Assembly: GCF_009834185.1 (NCBI RefSeq)
Contig: NZ_CP047173.1
Location: 1,391,725-1,455,724, forward strand
Source: Rathayibacter sp. VKM Ac-2760
GTDB taxonomy: Bacteria; Actinomycetota; Actinomycetes; Actinomycetales; Microbacteriaceae
Length of the DNA stretch: 64,000 nt
Direction of reading: 5' to 3'
Positions 18,134 through 58,593 of the stretch are shown here, piece by piece. Positions within the stretch are counted from its first letter, which is position 1, and every line of letters starts with the position of its first letter. The position numbers were made by a program, and so were the translations under genes. A model generated the notes under the pieces. The model was not told the DNA's origin. It was given only the letters and a program-made list of their open reading frames with translations, and did not search any database.

Positions 18134-18196
18134 CCGCGAGATGCCACTTATGAGCGGCGACACCGGCGTGTCGCGCTCATAAGTGGCATCTCGCGG
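18134..18196 (+). repeat. family-1 palindromic element, copy 3
   Basis: CCGCGAGATGCCACTTATGAGCG ... CGCTCATAAGTGGCATCTCGCGG. It carries a compensatory G>A / C>T change relative to copy 2. Confidence 0.85.
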
Positions 18197-18243: not shown

Positions 18244-18948
18244 TCACGGCCAGGAGGGCTCCTCCTCGTGGGTGATGACGAGCTCGCGGACCTCGCAACC
18301 GCGGGGCTGGCCGAGGACGAACATCACGGCGTTCGCGACGTTCTCCGGGTCGTTGAGGAGCGCGTCGGGGCCCGGCTTGTACTGGGCGTCGCGGTCGTCG
18401 AAGAAGCGGGTCTTCATGCCGGAGGGGATCAGGGTGGTGACGCCGATCTCGCCCTTGGTCTCGGCCGCGAGGGCGCGGGTGAAGCCGAGCACGCCGAATT
18501 TCGACGCGCAGTAGGCGGTCGCGTCCGAGACGGCCTTGATCGCGAGCGAGGACGCGACGGTGACGACGCGGCCGTGGGTCTCCGTCAGGAACGGCAGCGC
18601 GGCGCGGACGACAGCGGCGGTGCCGAGCAGGTTGACCGAGATCACGCGCTCCCACTCCTCCGGGTCGACGTCGACGAGGCGGCCGCAGCGGTCGATGCCG
18701 GCCGCGGTGACGACGGCGTCGAGTCCGCCGTGCTCGTGGGCGATCTCGACGACCGCCTTCTCGGCCTCGCGGGTCTTCGCGACGTCCACCTGGTAGGCGG
18801 CGACGCCCTCCTGCACGTTCGACACGTCGCGGTCGAGGACGATCGGCGTGCCGCCCGCGGCCGCGACGGCAGCGGCGACGGCGGCTCCGAGTCCGGAGGC
18901 GCCTCCGGTGATCAGGACGCGGCCGATGGGGGTGGGGGTGGTGGTCAT
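18244..18948 (-). CDS. SDR-family oxidoreductase
   Basis: 234 aa with TGGASGLG and YCASK motifs. Confidence 0.85.
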   Translation of the reverse strand: MTTTPTPIGRVLITGGASGLGAAVAAAVAAAGGTPIVLDRDVSNVQEGVAAYQVDVAKTREAEKAVVEIAHEHGGLDAVVTAAGIDRCGRLVDVDPEEWERVISVNLLGTAAVVRAALPFLTETHGRVVTVASSLAIKAVSDATAYCASKFGVLGFTRALAAETKGEIGVTTLIPSGMKTRFFDDRDAQYKPGPDALLNDPENVANAVMFVLGQPRGCEVRELVITHEEEPSWP

Positions 18949-27164: not shown

Positions 27165-27353
27165 CGGTACCCCTTCCGGGCATGCTGGCGCCCAGGTCCG
27201 GAGCGGCGGGTTGCGACGCGCTCGTCGTCGAGCGGCCCCGGGAGAAGCGGTGCCCACAGGCCACCACTGCTCCTCTCGTTCTAGAAGTCCGTTGACTCGG
27301 AGCACTGCTTCGCGCTAGGCACCCCGAGCGCACCCGCCTCCGGCACGTCGAAC

Positions 27354-28200
27354 CACCTCCGGCTCGCAGATCCGCGTCCGGCTCGCTGAATCTCCCGTTT
27401 CCCGCGAGCCGAGCCTGTTTCCGCGAGCCGAGCCTCGACCCGTGGCACCTCCGGCTCGCAGAATGACGTCCGGCTCGCCGAATCGCCTGATTCCCGCGAG
27501 CCGAACCGGTTTCCGCGAGCCGAACCTCGGCCCGCGTCACCTCCGGCTCGCAGATTCGCGTCCGGCTCGCTGAATCGTCTGAATCCGGCGAGCCGAACGG
27601 GTTTCCGCGAGCCGAACCTCGGTCCTCGTCACCTCCGGCTCGCAGATTCGCGTCCGGCTCGCTGAATCGCCCGTTTCCCGCGAGCCGAACGGATTTCCGC
27701 GAGCCGAGCCTCGACCCGTGGCACCTCCGGCTCGCAGAATGACGTCCGGCTCGCCGAATCGCCCGATTCCCGCGAGCCGGACCGGTTTCCGCGAGCCGAA
27801 TCTCGGTCCGAGTCACCTCCGGCTCGCAGATTCGCGTCCGGCTCGCTGAATCGCCCATTTCCCGCGAGCCGGACCGGTTTCCGCGAGCCGAACCGCGACC
27901 CGCGTCACCTCGGGCTCGCAGAATGACGTCCGGCTCGCTGAATCACCTGATTCCCGCGAGCCGAACGGGTTTCCGCGAGCCGAACCTCGGTCCGCGTCAC
28001 CTCCGGCTCGCAGATTGACGTCCGGCTCGCCGAATCGCCTGATTCCCGCGAGCCGGACCGGTTTCCACGAGCCGAGCCTCGGCCCGCGTCACCTCCGGCT
28101 CGCAGATTGACGTCCGGCTCGCCGAATCGCCCGTTTCCCGCGAGCCGAACCGGTTTCCGCGAGCCCGACCTCGGCCCGCGCCACCTCCGCCCCGCAGACC
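27354..28200. repeat. tandem array of nine exact-length 92-bp units plus a degenerate tenth
   Basis: Unit starts (CACCTCCGGCTCGCAGA) are at 27354, 27446, 27538, 27630, 27722, 27814, 27906, 27998, 28090 and 28182. Each unit holds 2x CCGGCTCGC and 2x GCGAGCCG (mutually inverted). Confidence 0.95.
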
Positions 28201-28288
28201 CCCCCCGCCCCGCCCACCACTCCGACCCCGCCCCATCCCCCTCCCGCCCCCTCGCTGTCCAGTCCGCCCCCGATCCCCGCCCCGCCGC

Positions 28289-28294
28289 TAGAAT
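28289..28294 (+). promoter_or_regulatory. candidate -10 hexamer TAGAAT for a leaderless or short-leader gltX mRNA
   Basis: TAGAAT ends 9 nt before the gltX ATG and no Shine-Dalgarno lies between them. Leaderless mRNAs are common in actinobacteria. Confidence 0.3.
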
Positions 28295-29846: not shown

Positions 29847-30851
29847 GTGGCGGAGGTGCAGGGCGGCCACTACGACGTCGTCATCATCGGAGCCGGTCCC
29901 GCGGGCCTGTCCGCCGGGCTGAATCTCGTTCGTGCGCGCCGCAGCGTGCTGCTGCTCGACAGCAACCGGCCGCGCAACGCGGCGACCCTGCACTCGCACG
30001 GCTTCCTCACCCGCGACGGCGTCTCGCCGCTCGAGCTGCGCCGCCTCGGCCGCGCCGAGCTGGAGCAGTACGACGAGGCCGAGGTGCACAACGCGATGGT
30101 CACCTCCGTCGAGCGCTCCGGCGGCGAGTTCGTCGTCACCGCGAAGGGCGTCCGCGGCTCGGCCGACCGCTCGGTGCTCGCGACCGCCGTCGTCGTCGCC
30201 GGCGGCCTCTCCGAGCGCCTGCCGACGCTGCCGAGCCTCCGCGCCTACTACGGCACCGCCGTGCACAGCTGCATGGAGTGCGACGGCTACGAGAAGGCCG
30301 GCGAGCCGCTCGCGCTGATCGGCGAGACCGCCGACCTCGCCGAGCGCGCCATGCTGCTCTCGCAGTGGTCGACCGACCTCATCGTCTTCACCAACGGCGT
30401 CGGAGTCGTCAGCGACGCCGACGAGTCGCTGCTCGGCTCGATCGGCATCCGCGTCGAGCGCCGCCCCGTCGCCGACCTCGCGGGGGAGCGCGCCGTGATG
30501 ACCGGAGTCGCCCTCGCCGACGGCGACGTCATCCCGCGCACCGGCGCCTTCGTCCGCCCGGTCTGGGTGCCCGTCCTCGACTACCTCGACCCGGCCGGCC
30601 CCGACGTGGACGCCGACGGCTTCCTCCGCGTCGACGCGGGCGGCCGCACCTCCGTCCCCGGCCTCTACGGCGCCGGCGAGGTCACCGCCCCCGGACCGCA
30701 GCAGCTGATCGTCGCCGCCGGCTCCGGCGCGCAGGTCGCCTCGGCGATCAACCGCGACCTCGTCCGCGCCCGCCTCGGCGAGGCCGCGCCCGAGTCGGAG
30801 GCCCCCGCCATCGACACCCGGGCCGCCGATCTGAGCGACGTCCGTCCGTAG
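29847..30851 (+). CDS. NAD(P)/FAD-dependent oxidoreductase (thioredoxin-reductase-like)
   Basis: The GTG at 29847 lies 2 nt after the gltX stop. Motifs: VVIIGAGPAGLSAG, a redox-type CMEC, GLYGAGEV. Confidence 0.8.
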   Translation: MAEVQGGHYDVVIIGAGPAGLSAGLNLVRARRSVLLLDSNRPRNAATLHSHGFLTRDGVSPLELRRLGRAELEQYDEAEVHNAMVTSVERSGGEFVVTAKGVRGSADRSVLATAVVVAGGLSERLPTLPSLRAYYGTAVHSCMECDGYEKAGEPLALIGETADLAERAMLLSQWSTDLIVFTNGVGVVSDADESLLGSIGIRVERRPVADLAGERAVMTGVALADGDVIPRTGAFVRPVWVPVLDYLDPAGPDVDADGFLRVDAGGRTSVPGLYGAGEVTAPGPQQLIVAAGSGAQVASAINRDLVRARLGEAAPESEAPAIDTRAADLSDVRP

Positions 30852-30887
30852 CCCGGGCCGGTCGATTTGAGCGACGTCCGTCCGTAG
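30817..30887 (+). repeat. 35/36-nt tandem duplication that includes the stop codon of the preceding gene
   Basis: CCCGGGCCGCCGATCTGAGCGACGTCCGTCCGTAG (30817-30851) is followed by CCCGGGCCGGTCGATTTGAGCGACGTCCGTCCGTAG (30852-30887). Confidence 0.8.
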
Positions 30888-30960: not shown

Positions 30961-31032
30961 TGGGGTATGGTGTAATTGGCAACACGACTGATTCTGGTTC
31001 AGTTGTTCTTGGTTCGAGTCCAGGTACCCCAG
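30961..31032 (+). tRNA. tRNA-Gln (anticodon CTG)
   Basis: A hand-folded cloverleaf: acceptor TGGGGTA/TACCCCA, D stem GTGT/ACAC, anticodon stem ACTGA/TCAGT with loop TTCTGGT, and T arm CTTGG-TTCGAGT-CCAGG. CCA is not encoded. Confidence 0.9.
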
Positions 31033-31240
31033 CACTTCTCCTCCTCGCCCTGAGGATCCTCGCCCGGCTGTCGCCCGCCGCTGTTCCGGCTGTGTCGTTC
31101 CGGCAGCGCCGCGCGTCTCGCGCAGGGCCGCTGCATCCCCCGCCCGGCCGACGCCCGACTCCTCCCGGCATGCCACGATGAACCTGTACATCGCTCAGAA
31201 ACCCGCCTCCCGCGGGTTCCGAGAAGGGGGTCTCTCGTCC

Positions 31241-34255: not shown

Positions 34256-34519
34256 ATGAGCGACGGGGAGACGATCGACGGCCGGCCGGTGACGGAGGAG
34301 CAGATCGCAGAGTGGGCGGCGGAGGCGGAGCGCGGCTACGACATCGATGCCCTCAAGGCGAGAGGCCGAGGACGCCCCGGTAGAGGCGCTCTCCCCTCGC
34401 AGGTCGTCGCCGTTCGGCTCACCCTGGACGAGCTCGCCGCACTCGACGAGCGCGCCGCCCGGGAGCACAAGACGCGCTCCGAGGTCGTCCGCGAGGCGCT
34501 CGCCGCGTCGGCGGCGTGA
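34256..34519 (+). CDS. ribbon-helix-helix (CopG-like) antitoxin
   Basis: 87 aa from the ATG at 34256. The C-terminal RHH is VVAVRLTLDELAALDERAAREHKTRSEVVREAL. GTGA overlap with the next ORF. Confidence 0.7.
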   Translation: MSDGETIDGRPVTEEQIAEWAAEAERGYDIDALKARGRGRPGRGALPSQVVAVRLTLDELAALDERAAREHKTRSEVVREALAASAA

Positions 34520-34755
34520 AGGTCCACCCTTCGGCGCTCAAGCACGGGATCTCGGCGGACGACGCCGTCCACGCCGCAGACCTGGCGCTCTGGGTCGAGG
34601 AACTCGACGACGACTCTCCGGCGCGTCAGCTCCGCCTGGGCTTCGATACCCGCGGTCGGCTCCTCGAGACGGTCGTCCTGATCTTCGACAGCGGCCACGA
34701 ACTCGTCATTCACGCGATGAAGGCCCGCCCGGGCATGATCGAGCTCCTGCCCTGA
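34516..34755 (+). CDS. BrnT-like small toxin candidate
   Basis: 79 aa. The motif order KHGIS ... GRLLETVV ... VIHAMKARP resembles the BrnT family (KHGVS ... ISARKA). It is coupled to the RHH gene, but the gene order is the reverse of classical BrnTA. Confidence 0.5.
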   Translation: MKVHPSALKHGISADDAVHAADLALWVEELDDDSPARQLRLGFDTRGRLLETVVLIFDSGHELVIHAMKARPGMIELLP

Positions 34756-34875: not shown

Positions 34876-36594
34876 TCAGAAGTAGCGCGCCAGGTGCTCG
34901 CGGAGCGCCTCGTCGCAGACGTGCACGTACGTCCCCCTGATGCCGCGCGTGAGCAGCACCGTGTAGATGTTGCGGACGTACGCGAGCAGGTCCTCGTCGC
35001 TGTAGGTGATGCCGAGCTTCGGGTTGTTCTCGCGCCCCTTCTTGTCGAAGTAGTGCGAGCGGTCGAAGACGACGCGTCCCGAGGCGGTGTCGAAGCGCAG
35101 ATCGCGGCCGATGATGACGCCCGCGTAGTTGAGGTCGTAGCCCTGCACCGTGTGGATCGAGCCGACCTCGTCGATCGCGCCGGGGGAGTTGATCCAGTCG
35201 CGCTGCGTCTGATTCCAGCGGAGCGACTCGTCGCCGATCACGATGTCGAAGGCGCTCCTGTCCGTCTTCGTGACCCACTTCCACGCGTAGCCCGCGACCA
35301 GTCGTGAGAGGCCGTGCTCCCGGTCGCGCTCGACGATCGAGCGGCGCAGCTCGCCCGGATCGTCGAAGAAGCGCAGGTCGTACTCGCCGAAGTCCTCGCG
35401 CGCCGACGGCGGATCATCGGACAGCGCGGCGCGGACGTAGCCGACGTAGTCCTTCTCCGCGGCGATGCGCATCTGCGAGCGGAGCGGGTAGACCCGGCCC
35501 TCGGCCGACGCCTCCGCGAGGACGGCGCGGGTGACCGTCGCGGGCAGGTCCGCTGGGCGGACGGTCTGCGCGGTGTCCAGCATCAGGATCGTGTGCCTGC
35601 TCCGCGCGCGGATCCAGTCCAGCTGCGTGTACTCGAGCGAGTCCTCGCCGAACAGCCGCTCGTTGATGTCGATGAACTTGCGGTTGAGCGGCCCCGAGGG
35701 CTGGTTCGCCCGCTGGCTGAGCCGGTGCGCTTCGTCGACGAGGAGCAGATCGAACGGCTCGTCGCTCTCGCCGACCTGGAAGGGCGTCAGCACCAGGTCC
35801 TTCGACAGTCCCGGGGTGAGGCTGAAGACCCGGGAGATCGACCCGCGCAGCGACTGCTGCGGCACGACGAGGCCGACCCGCAGCGTCGACAGCAGCTCCG
35901 CGTGGCCCGGGGTGAAGAACTCGCTGAAGATCGAGTCGCCGTCCAGCGGCTCCTCCGGGTCGTGCTCGCGGATGTCCTGCAGCAGCTTCAGCAGGTAGAT
36001 GGCGACGACGGTCTTCCCGGTCCCCGGATCGCCCTGCACGACGACGGTGCTGGGACCGCCGGACTCGAGGTCGGTGAACAGCCCTTCGAGGATGTCCTCG
36101 ACCGCGATCGCCTGATCGTGGTTCAGCGCCTTGAACGGAGACAGCTTGAAGAGATCGCTGTTGACGATCTCGGGGAGCGTCCGCTGGAAGAGCTTCTCCT
36201 CGGTGCGGAGGACCTCGAACACCTCGTCGAACGTCCGGCGGTAGGACGCGCGGTCGAAGTAGTCGGCGTCGGTGATGCCGGCGTTGTGATTGAGGACAGC
36301 CAGGCGGCCCTCCCCCGAGAGCATCCGCAGGAGGAACGATTCGAGGTCGAGGCAGGCCGACTTGTTGAAGGTGTCGTCGAGGACGACCCGCACCCGGTCC
36401 AGCCGGCTCTTCTCCGGCGAGTCGAGGTGCTGGCGCAGTCGCCCCTCGGCGTTCAGCGACTCGCCGACGTAGACCTCCGAGGCGCTGTCGAGCACGTAGA
36501 CGACGGGCCAGTTCCGGTGCCGCGGGTCGGCGGCGCCCCACACGCGCACCCGATCGGAGTCGAACGGGAGTCGCTCGACGCTAAAGCCGGTCAT
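34876..36594 (-). CDS. GIY-YIG-like nuclease / DUF2075 (Schlafen-type helicase-like ATPase) protein
   Basis: 572 aa. The N-terminus is VVYVL-x6-VYVGES-N-x4-RLRQH. Walker A is GDPGTGKT and Walker B is LLLVDEAHRL. The C-terminal part is DUF2075-like. Confidence 0.85.
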   Translation of the reverse strand: MTGFSVERLPFDSDRVRVWGAADPRHRNWPVVYVLDSASEVYVGESLNAEGRLRQHLDSPEKSRLDRVRVVLDDTFNKSACLDLESFLLRMLSGEGRLAVLNHNAGITDADYFDRASYRRTFDEVFEVLRTEEKLFQRTLPEIVNSDLFKLSPFKALNHDQAIAVEDILEGLFTDLESGGPSTVVVQGDPGTGKTVVAIYLLKLLQDIREHDPEEPLDGDSIFSEFFTPGHAELLSTLRVGLVVPQQSLRGSISRVFSLTPGLSKDLVLTPFQVGESDEPFDLLLVDEAHRLSQRANQPSGPLNRKFIDINERLFGEDSLEYTQLDWIRARSRHTILMLDTAQTVRPADLPATVTRAVLAEASAEGRVYPLRSQMRIAAEKDYVGYVRAALSDDPPSAREDFGEYDLRFFDDPGELRRSIVERDREHGLSRLVAGYAWKWVTKTDRSAFDIVIGDESLRWNQTQRDWINSPGAIDEVGSIHTVQGYDLNYAGVIIGRDLRFDTASGRVVFDRSHYFDKKGRENNPKLGITYSDEDLLAYVRNIYTVLLTRGIRGTYVHVCDEALREHLARYF

Positions 36595-36907
36595 GCCTGG
36601 TGCTTCTCCCGCGAGCCTTCTCCACCGGGTACTTGGCCCTGGTCCTCTCGAGCTTCGCGAGGACGATCTCGCCCGCGTCCACCCCGAGTCGGTCGGCGAG
36701 CAGGAGAGAGTAGGTCAGCACGTCCGCGAGCTCGTCGACGGCCGAGGGGAGGTCGCCCTCGCCCCACTGGAAGCACTCGAGCAGCTCGCCCGACTCGATG
36801 CTGATGCTCTTCGCGAGGTTCTCCGGCGTGTGGAACTGCGCCCAGTCGCGCTCGCGCACGAAGGCGCGGAGGGCGTCGAGGACCTCGTCATCGGGCATGG
36901 CTGCCAA
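36581..36907 (-). CDS. MazG-like nucleotide pyrophosphohydrolase
   Basis: 108 aa with acidic metal-binding helices ESGELLECFQW and VDELADVL. The 3' end overlaps the DUF2075 start by 14 nt. Confidence 0.8.
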   Translation of the reverse strand: MAAMPDDEVLDALRAFVRERDWAQFHTPENLAKSISIESGELLECFQWGEGDLPSAVDELADVLTYSLLLADRLGVDAGEIVLAKLERTRAKYPVEKARGRSTRHDRL

Positions 36908-58530: not shown

Positions 58531-58593
58531 CCGCGAGATGCCACTTGCGCGCGCCTTCCTCGGCGTGTCGCGCTCACAAGTGGCATCTCGCGG
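58531..58593 (+). repeat. family-1 palindromic element, copy 4
   Basis: CCGCGAGATGCCACTTG ... CAAGTGGCATCTCGCGG. It lies 12 nt after the aspA stop, and the alkA-like stop codon (58574-58576) is inside it. Confidence 0.8.

Follow-up and report, generated by a model that had tools for sequence, protein, structure and literature searches.

A MazG-like pyrophosphohydrolase gene co-inherited with a GIY-YIG–DUF2075 nuclease-helicase gene, a candidate defence operon in Rathayibacter

Two overlapping genes lie on the minus strand of a 64,000-nucleotide (nt) stretch of the Rathayibacter sp. VKM Ac-2760 chromosome (contig NZ_CP047173.1, positions 1,391,725 to 1,455,724; hereafter referred to as the window, in whose coordinates all positions below are given), an actinobacterial chromosome of roughly 72% G+C. 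The first gene (36581–36898) encodes a MazG-like, all-alpha deoxynucleoside triphosphate (dNTP) pyrophosphohydrolase of the DCTPP1/RS21-C6 type. The second (34876–36594) encodes a 572-residue protein in which a GIY-YIG nuclease domain (residues ~27 to 110; 36265–36516) is fused to a DUF2075 helicase core of superfamily 1B (SF1B) type, as in Schlafen group 3 (residues 182 to 561; 34912–36051). An initial annotation, made from the sequence alone, had proposed the pair as a two-gene defence or abortive-infection module. Here we report the gene structure, the intact catalytic residues and the co-inheritance of the pair, and suggest that it is most likely directed against foreign DNA carrying modified bases.

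Both open reading frames (ORFs) and their 14-nt overlap are where the initial annotation had placed them. The length of 108 residues given there for the MazG-like protein corresponds to the frame read from an in-frame TTG (36581–36907); public annotation and nearly all homologues (for example, P0121, 105 residues) use the ATG at 36898, which yields 105 residues. The 572-residue product of the second frame is 100% identical to a protein annotated in this strain as ‘DUF2075 domain-containing protein’. The stop codon of the MazG-like gene overlaps the start of the helicase gene (36581–36594), and a Shine–Dalgarno-like GGGAGA motif (36605–36610) lies 10 nt 5′ of the helicase ATG, inside the end of the MazG-like gene, giving a candidate coupling region at 36581–36610. 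A promoter and terminator scan of the locus returned nothing informative in this 70% G+C genome.

The MazG-like protein matches the Pfam family PF12643 (E = 2e-15; 57.2 bits, gathering cut-off 27) and, among Protein Data Bank (PDB) chains, an archaeal pyrophosphatase (4qgp; 5e-17) and mouse and human DCTPP1 (RS21-C6; 5e-16), in agreement with the original assignment. The acidic motifs ESGELLECFQW and VDELADVL are present, and the metal-binding motifs ExxExxE and ExxD (E35, E38, E41, E56 and D59) are intact. Across 75 MazG-like partners of the helicase family, W19, F22, H23, E35, E38, E41, E56, D59, K82 and Y90 are invariant, which argues that the pyrophosphatase activity itself is under selection. 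DCTPP1 and 4qgp share with the window protein the all-alpha MazG-like family and the conserved RDWxQFH, ExxExxE, ExxD and KYP motifs, whereas in the window protein the acidic motifs are joined by a shorter loop, RH replaces a near-invariant KY, and the gene shares its operon with that of a nuclease-helicase. Its C terminus (36581–36600) reads ...STRHDRL, where the K and Y of ...KYxxL occur in 95–96% of the 75 paired partners; among 120 close MazG-like homologues the dipeptide is KY in 99, RY in 12, KH in 4 and RH in 1. The DCTPP1 family cleans 5-modified dCTP from the nucleotide pool and has a house-cleaning role (PMC7162842, PMC4491611). By analogy, the window enzyme probably converts dCTP or 5-modified dCTP to the monophosphate and pyrophosphate.

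The N terminus of the 572-residue protein scores just below the family threshold by itself (PF01541; 19.4 bits, E = 0.0013, gathering score 22.6), and the same profile matches 36 of 36 tested family N termini at E < 0.01 (best 1.9e-11). In family alignments Y33, Y42, G44, R52, H56, E85 and N102, which include the complete catalytic set (all but G44), are invariant in the canonical GIY-YIG order and spacing. When a family profile was run against the PDB, the top matches were I-TevI, T4 endonuclease II and UvrC, at marginal values (E = 0.013–0.08). From these sequence features we assign the N-terminal ~110 residues as a GIY-YIG nuclease, as first proposed; the motif in the initial annotation requires a trivial correction of its spacing, to VVYVL-x5-VYVGES-x-N-x3-RLRQH.

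The remainder of the protein matches PF09848 (SLFN-g3_helicase, DUF2075) with E = 3e-66 over residues 182 to 561, covering profile positions 2 to 354 of 354. The core contains a Walker A motif (GDPGTGKT; 36010–36033), a Walker B motif (DE; 35731–35736) and an arginine finger, and the LLLVDEAHRL string noted earlier is also present. G188, G191, G193, K194, D287, E288, Q343, Q374, R376 and R550 are invariant in the family alignment (62 full-length relatives, 30–51% identical to the window protein), and the motif IHTVQGYDLNY is conserved. With both catalytic sets and the Walker A and B motifs invariant, both enzymes look active. A sequence search of the PDB with the 572-residue protein returned nothing useful, and a fold search was needed: an AlphaFold2 model, predicted with 62 diverse homologues as input (pLDDT 94.3, pTM 0.92), gave the SLFN11 helicase domain, RecD2, RecD, Dna2 and Upf1 as top Foldseek matches. 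The eukaryotic Schlafen group III proteins SLFN11 and SLFN14 thus share this helicase domain, whereas the AlbA_2 tRNase domain that defines Schlafen proteins and bacterial Schlafen defences is absent from the window protein in a Pfam scan, a GIY-YIG domain standing in its place. The earlier DUF2075/Schlafen-group-III label therefore fits the helicase domain only. The Pfam scan also detected no recognizable modified-base reader domain (SRA, PUA, EVE, DUF3427, GmrS and the like) in the 572-residue protein, so that any dependence on DNA modification is argued from association and analogy. Readers of this kind were seen only in genes beside the pair at other loci.

In a clade of GIY-YIG–DUF2075 proteins of 669–776 residues (P0260, P0262, P0267, P0315, P0317 and P0363), a LexA/UmuD-type Peptidase_S24 domain is found at the C terminus, suggesting that RecA or single-stranded DNA controls these members. 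All four loci checked in this clade (L075 9932–11986, L078 1858–4074, L083 9992–12001 and L097 7905–10151) retain the MazG-like gene upstream.

The two genes are strikingly co-inherited. A homologue search of 1.8 billion cluster representatives recovered 468 clusters (50% identity) at E ≤ 1e-30, and 80 loci (numbered with the prefix L) were fetched with the family alignment from one-genome-per-species contigs; in two of them the contig ends at the gene, precluding the comparison. A MazG-like ORF adjoins the helicase gene in 73 of the 78 testable species genomes (94%), at helicase identities of 35–84% and in Actinomycetota, Saccharibacteria, Bacillota, Bacteroidota, Firestonebacteria and one Woesearchaeote (an archaeon). 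The MazG-like gene is upstream on the same strand in 72 loci and divergent in L066. Spacing was taken for 73 loci in which the MazG-like gene precedes the helicase gene in the same orientation: the two overlap in 57 and are 0–22 nt apart in 16, and an overlap of exactly 14 nt, as in the window, recurs in 43 of the 73. Furthermore, the pairwise divergences of the two proteins are correlated (Mantel r = 0.74, a value that none of 999 permutations reached). In the remaining five loci, none of the reading frames within 10 kb of the helicase gene encodes a MazG-like sequence; the helicase gene itself is frameshifted or split in two of the five and intact in three. The pairing is kept on Bacillus cereus-group megaplasmids at 30% identity, and three of three MazG-like proteins chosen from genomes unseen on the helicase side adjoin a DUF2075 gene. 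The co-conservation that the initial annotation had called for checking is thus evident in adjacency, tight spacing and correlated divergence.

The partnership also persists when the N-terminal domain is exchanged: DUF2075 proteins with a different ~250-residue N-terminal domain and no GIY-YIG motif have an adjacent MazG-like gene (L102, L103, L107 and L109), as do the two published candidates SG192 and SG193 described below. From the MazG-like side, ~62% of 77 testable metagenomic loci with close MazG-like relatives have a DUF2075 neighbour, which is directly downstream in 30, directly upstream in 10, one gene away in 6 and divergent in 2, and absent in 29; the unpaired MazG-like genes occupy miscellaneous contexts. 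The link is therefore asymmetric: the helicase-nuclease is almost always accompanied by the pyrophosphatase, whereas the pyrophosphatase can live alone. A Rosetta-stone test for natural fusions found none between MazG-like and DUF2075 sequences among 270 family proteins.

Several variants of the arrangement were seen. In metagenome contigs L129–L131, L157 and L162, a protein of ~200–270 residues and of no known family is encoded between the MazG-like and DUF2075 genes; it is apparently membrane-associated in L129–L131, and the DUF2075 N terminus of this three-gene variant is SG192-like. One IMG/VR contig (L105, 5749–9653) has a single MazG-like gene flanked by two DUF2075 paralogues, one with GIY-YIG and one with the alternative N-terminal domain. 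The L103 contig, which carries a MazG-like and DUF2075 pair, bears the label of a giant-virus metagenome-assembled genome (IMGVR_UViG_GVMAG-S-1041346-124); this may reflect contamination or a real viral acquisition.

The surroundings of the pair vary among loci, in place of the conserved housekeeping contexts that would have spoken against a module, and all-against-all clustering of flanking ORFs revealed no third universal gene. Neighbour counts are approximate, as gene calls based on third-codon-position G+C content are imperfect in high-G+C loci. Among 143 immediate neighbours, the top families in Pfam and PADLOC searches were ResIII/PLD/DUF3427 (mREase_IV), NERD, NUDIX, mads components, RloB, GmrSD, NYN, BrxH and SoFic, mixed with ordinary metabolic genes. 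The commonest neighbours are two. A ~1000-residue protein combining a phospholipase D-like (PLD) nuclease, a superfamily 2 (SF2) helicase and DUF3427, the architecture of SauUSI, occurs in 11 of the 80 loci and matches the PADLOC mREase_IV model for type IV methyl-directed restriction over its full length (E = 4e-207). A small NUDIX protein is found in 12 of the 80 loci, with NudG (a pyrimidine (d)NTP diphosphatase) and MutT as best NCBIfam matches, both below cut-offs. In L033 and L057 (Actinomycetota) and L061 and L074 (Clostridia), genes for the SauUSI-like enzyme, the NUDIX protein, the MazG-like protein and the helicase are arranged head to tail on one strand as four-gene operons. In annotated actinobacterial neighbourhoods we also saw McrBC, a reverse transcriptase beside an insertion sequence fragment, a T5orf172-helicase protein with an Eco57I-type enzyme, and AbiEi/AbiEii. 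C5 methyltransferases are near the pair in five loci and LigD in three. The apparent enrichment of defence genes beside the pair is a qualitative one, drawn from these neighbour lists alone. The initial annotation had asked about enrichment in defence islands: restriction and defence genes are the commonest immediate neighbours, and the window locus forms no obvious island. As a separate observation, proteins with a GmrSD_C (DUF1524) nuclease domain adjoin the pair in several Cryobacterium and Microcella loci (L009 7841–9634, L015, L052, L011 and L025); at least that of L009 also has an Excalibur calcium-binding domain, and the group probably represents secreted nucleases and not type IV enzymes.

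The Rathayibacter nuclease-helicase is 70–78% identical to proteins of Leucobacter, Brevibacterium, Arthrobacter, Rothia and Georgenia, and only 58–60% identical to those of Clavibacter, Cryobacterium, Frigoribacterium and most Microbacterium, members of its own family, to which it is no closer than to Nocardioides or Pseudonocardia. This identity does not follow taxonomy, indicating horizontal transfer. Homologues are present on 109 plasmid records, and one B. thuringiensis megaplasmid has NUDIX, zeta-toxin and HNH genes close to the pair. The two genes form a predicted operon with translational coupling, passed on and moved between lineages as a single unit. A phage origin was considered and rejected: phages do not typically carry the pair, the searches having returned only four weak or unverified phage records and 13 IMG/VR contigs, mostly of distant relatives.

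We found no characterized system built from exactly this pair, as the initial annotation had also stated: PADLOC gave no system-level match for either window protein and only weak partial matches to PDC-S14, PDC-S41, AbiO and Nhi, an NCBIfam scan of the window proteins gave nothing specific, and a search of a literature library found no paper mentioning DUF2075 together with MazG. The idea of such a pair as a defence candidate is, however, not new. The supplementary candidate table of Millman et al. (2022), in which verified systems are marked ‘v’, shortlists two ‘Pyrophosphatase’ entries with a DUF2075 partner, in each of which, as in the window, a MazG-like pyrophosphatase gene adjoins a DUF2075 gene. 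SG192, from Bacillus firmus (a 98-residue pyrophosphatase and a 643-residue DUF2075 protein), is marked ‘x’ in that table, for no defence, and SG193, from B. thuringiensis, ‘Cloning failed’. The SG193 pyrophosphatase is 42% identical to that of the window, and its gene order is reversed. The SG192 pyrophosphatase lacks the conserved C-terminal tail, and the SG192 helicase shares only the core with the window protein, at ~24% identity. The DUF2075 partner in this candidate system has a ~240-residue N-terminal domain that differs from that of the window protein and has a D...ELKQW motif that looks PD-(D/E)XK-like by eye. The SG192 DUF2075 protein instead groups with L102, at 32% identity over the N-terminal domain and helicase core. 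The novelty in our data, judged from these comparisons, is a GIY-YIG branch obligately paired with a MazG-like gene; nuclease–DUF2075 defence proteins and pyrophosphatase-linked relatives were known.

The closest characterized architecture is that of Nhi (Staphylococcus epidermidis SERP2475) and Nhi-like (Bacillus cereus SG141), verified single-gene anti-phage proteins in which, as in the window protein, an N-terminal nuclease precedes an SF1 helicase core overlapping DUF2075/PF09848 in one polypeptide. Phages escape Nhi-like by losing a DNA methylase, from which its authors conclude that methylation sensitizes phage DNA. The Nhi nuclease is of PD-(D/E)XK type and that of Nhi-like is unspecified, whereas the window nuclease is GIY-YIG; the PADLOC Nhi model reaches the window protein at only 4e-4, over residues 157 to 205 (~50 residues). 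Moreover, whereas Nhi and Nhi-like act as single genes, 94% of the window family is coupled to a MazG-like gene. SauUSI, described in PMC3141236 as cutting DNA containing 5-methylcytosine (5mC) or 5-hydroxymethylcytosine (5hmC), provides a second parallel. DUF3427 proteins restrict the 5hmC phage T4gt and have already been noted beside DUF2075 NTPases. SauUSI-type type IV enzymes resemble the window protein in combining an ATP-dependent motor with a nuclease and co-occur with the pair, sometimes in one operon; they differ in having an SF2 motor, a PLD nuclease and DUF3427, whereas the window protein has an SF1 motor and GIY-YIG, and the window has no DUF3427 or SauUSI-like gene.

By analogy with these systems, the pair is most likely an anti-phage or anti-mobile-DNA module that would act against DNA containing modified bases, in the manner of type IV restriction. 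With moderate confidence, we favour a modification-directed nuclease-helicase accompanied by an obligate sanitizer of modified dCTP. This reading follows from the known role of the pyrophosphatase family in cleaning 5-modified dCTP, from the dependence of the closest verified nuclease-helicase relative on phage DNA methylation, from the recurrence of type IV modified-cytosine enzymes and NudG/MutT-like NUDIX proteins as operon partners, and from the asymmetric dependence, in which the nuclease needs the sanitizer and not the reverse. In this mechanism, the ATP-driven helicase would load on invading or replicating DNA and the GIY-YIG domain would nick or cut the DNA that the helicase has bound. 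The pyrophosphatase, which may also interact physically with its partner, would hydrolyse 5-modified dCTP (5-methyl- and 5-hydroxymethyl-dCTP) and possibly dCTP. The modified precursors could be phage-derived or salvaged from degraded modified DNA, and their hydrolysis would keep them out of DNA, starving phages with modified DNA, sparing the host chromosome from its own nuclease, or both. A more specific, tentative version is a two-layer defence, in which the GIY-YIG helicase would restrict 5-modified-cytosine DNA and the DCTPP1-like enzyme would be both obligate safeguard and co-effector. Destruction of 5-methyl-, 5-hydroxymethyl- or otherwise modified dCTP would then block phages whose modified genomes are made from these precursors, and salvaged nucleotides from restricted DNA would be kept out of the host chromosome, with no self-restriction as a result.

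Several observations weigh against a modification-directed defence. The window pair occupies an ordinary chromosomal locus that is syntenic in Rathayibacter, between GNAT and amino-acid permease genes on one side and SPFH and glutamyl-tRNA synthetase genes on the other, with no integrase and no flanking repeats found there. In Rathayibacter festucae (L095) both sides are collinear, with genes for an FAD oxidase, an M20 peptidase, the amino-acid permease, GNAT, the pair, SPFH, tRNA-Gln and glutamyl-tRNA synthetase. Many actinobacterial neighbours are plain metabolic genes, and the C5 methyltransferases near the pair in five loci are awkward for a 5mC-dependent nuclease. The window pyrophosphatase has RH at the near-invariant KY, its nuclease partner carries no recognizable modification reader, and PADLOC recognizes no system in either protein. 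The 29 of 77 metagenomic MazG-like loci without a DUF2075 neighbour indicate a stand-alone house-cleaning role as well. Co-inheritance and a defence-type context thus give partial support to the earlier proposal of a candidate defence or abortive-infection module. SG192, with its other N-terminal domain and its tail-less pyrophosphatase, is the sole tested two-gene relative; it is listed in the candidate table as giving no defence.

The main rival explanation, possible but clearly less probable, is a genome-maintenance operon, in which the pyrophosphatase would clean non-canonical dNTPs and the GIY-YIG helicase, resembling UvrC joined to an SF1 enzyme, would remove the resulting lesions or stalled-fork structures. 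The homology to DCTPP1 and its house-cleaning role (PMC7162842) fit this explanation, as do the MutT/NudG-like NUDIX partners, the nearby LigD in three loci and strong purifying selection on both proteins. The stable syntenic position in Rathayibacter, the metabolic neighbours in several genomes and the ‘x’ given to SG192 in the candidate table point in the same direction, and the sizeable clade with a C-terminal Peptidase_S24 domain suggests a RecA/SOS link. However, a maintenance operon does not account well for identities that depart from taxonomy or for the presence of the pair on plasmids. Restriction and defence genes are the commonest immediate neighbours of the pair, far above the expectation for a repair operon, and the pair shares operons with a full-length type IV restriction enzyme; the closest characterized architecture, that of Nhi and Nhi-like, is defensive.

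A toxin–antitoxin-like or abortive-infection pair is unlikely. Here the nuclease-helicase would be a toxin checked by the upstream pyrophosphatase, through binding or through destruction of an activating nucleotide, and phage interference with the pyrophosphatase or a nucleotide surge would free the toxin. A small upstream gene overlapping a larger downstream gene is the expected layout, the helicase is almost never without the MazG-like gene, which is often alone, and the helicase gene is disrupted in two of the five loci without a MazG-like gene. SG193, listed as ‘Cloning failed’ in the candidate table, and the toxin–antitoxin and Abi cassettes beside the pair in Rathayibacter would also suit this explanation. 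On the other hand, all catalytic residues of the MazG-like protein are invariant, as expected if enzyme activity rather than mere binding is selected, and three intact helicase genes persist with no MazG-like sequence within 10 kb. The gene order is reversed in 10 of the 77 metagenomic loci and in SG193, and the absence of natural fusions among the 270 family proteins likewise speaks against it.

Defensive dCTP deaminase and dGTPase enzymes work by dNTP depletion. A general defence of this kind, in which the helicase-nuclease would sense phage replication and the pyrophosphatase effector would drain canonical dCTP or other dNTPs, is very unlikely for the window pair. MazG-like enzymes do hydrolyse dNTPs and DCTPP1 acts on dCTP; a MazG-like protein is the predicted NTP-targeting effector in rare PUA-HAD systems, where it replaces the calcineurin-type dNTP-depleting effector, and the initial annotation had drawn the analogy to systems that modify the nucleotide pool. 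The dNTP-depletion defences (dCTP deaminase, dGTPase and PUA-calcineurin-HAD) resemble the window pair in placing a nucleotide-pool enzyme in a defence context, but they are regulated effectors, whereas the window pyrophosphatase is a minimal domain without a sensor, paired with a DNA nuclease. An unregulated loss of dCTP caused by a constitutive 105-residue enzyme with no visible regulatory domain would be toxic, a partner whose nuclease is conserved and intact points to DNA cleavage as the effector step, and stand-alone MazG-like relatives occur in ordinary contexts. Finally, chance adjacency of two unrelated genes is ruled out for practical purposes by adjacency in 73 of 78 genomes, by spacing of at most 22 nt where the MazG-like gene is upstream on the same strand, and by correlated divergence.

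If the pair is a modification-directed defence module, the Nhi/Nhi-like class of nuclease–DUF2075 proteins would gain a large GIY-YIG branch, comprising the 468 clusters and common in Actinomycetota and candidate-phylum bacteria. A dedicated modified-dNTP sanitizer wired to a nuclease that attacks foreign DNA would be a new principle and a bacterial counterpart of the supposed role of DCTPP1 in human epigenetic fidelity, and the one heterologous failure reported in the Sorek-lab candidate table would be explained by a different nuclease variant and a truncated pyrophosphatase. Should the two-layer version be true, pool sanitation would be a general, so far unrecognized requirement of modification-dependent immunity, which would explain the NudG/MutT-like NUDIX genes in operons with SauUSI-like enzymes. 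As a repair operon, the pair would represent a widespread, horizontally mobile pathway coupling pool sanitation with incision. In practical terms, the family may offer enzymes for the detection of modified cytosines and a marker of barriers to transforming actinobacteria with methylated DNA. Our analysis provides a testable hypothesis that ties nucleotide-pool sanitation to modification-dependent immunity.

Among the genes surrounding the pair, the GNAT gene noted in the initial annotation is confirmed (PF00583, 2e-18). The toxin–antitoxin pair reported there is such by layout only: a ribbon–helix–helix (RHH; CopG) gene on the plus strand (probable start 34257, to 34519; PF01402, 6e-7) overlaps by 4 nt a plus-strand ORF of 79 residues (34516–34755), which matches no family. 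Both are context and not part of the module. They occupy a variable slot just downstream of the helicase gene, filled by AbiEi/AbiEii in R. festucae (L095, 11741–13191), and this slot beside the module appears, from these sequences, to be a small hotspot for toxin–antitoxin or abortive-infection cassettes. In R. agropyri (L005) the cassette of RHH gene and 79-residue ORF lies upstream of the pair. A tRNA-linked island was also considered, with tRNA-Gln ~4 kb away, and rejected: both flanks are collinear with R. festucae, so the pair did not arrive by integration at tRNA-Gln.

The boundary of the locus by two copies of one repeat family, claimed in the initial annotation, was not reproduced. 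Three repeat families emerged when the whole window and, separately, its 28–44 kb region were searched, with repeats at ~2.0, 4.0, 18.1, 27.3–28.3 and 58.5 kb and none flanking 33.7–37.6 kb. A ~60-nt palindromic element resembling repetitive extragenic palindromes or miniature inverted-repeat transposable elements (CGCGAGATGCCACTTGTG ... CACAAGTGGCATCTCGCG) has four copies (2007–2067, 4000–4060, 18135–18195 and 58532–58592), with eight arm matches against ~0.07 expected by chance and no copy near the module. At 27257–28292, about 11 tandem copies of a 92-nt unit fill an intergenic region, the central copies being 85–90% and the end copies 69% identical to the reference, and R. festucae has a related repeat at the syntenic position (L095, ~18789–18918). 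At 30817–30887 and 30961–31033, a 36-nt direct duplication (…GATCTGAGCGACGTCCGTCCGTAG, twice) overlaps the stop codon of the preceding ORF and is followed by tRNA-Gln(CTG).

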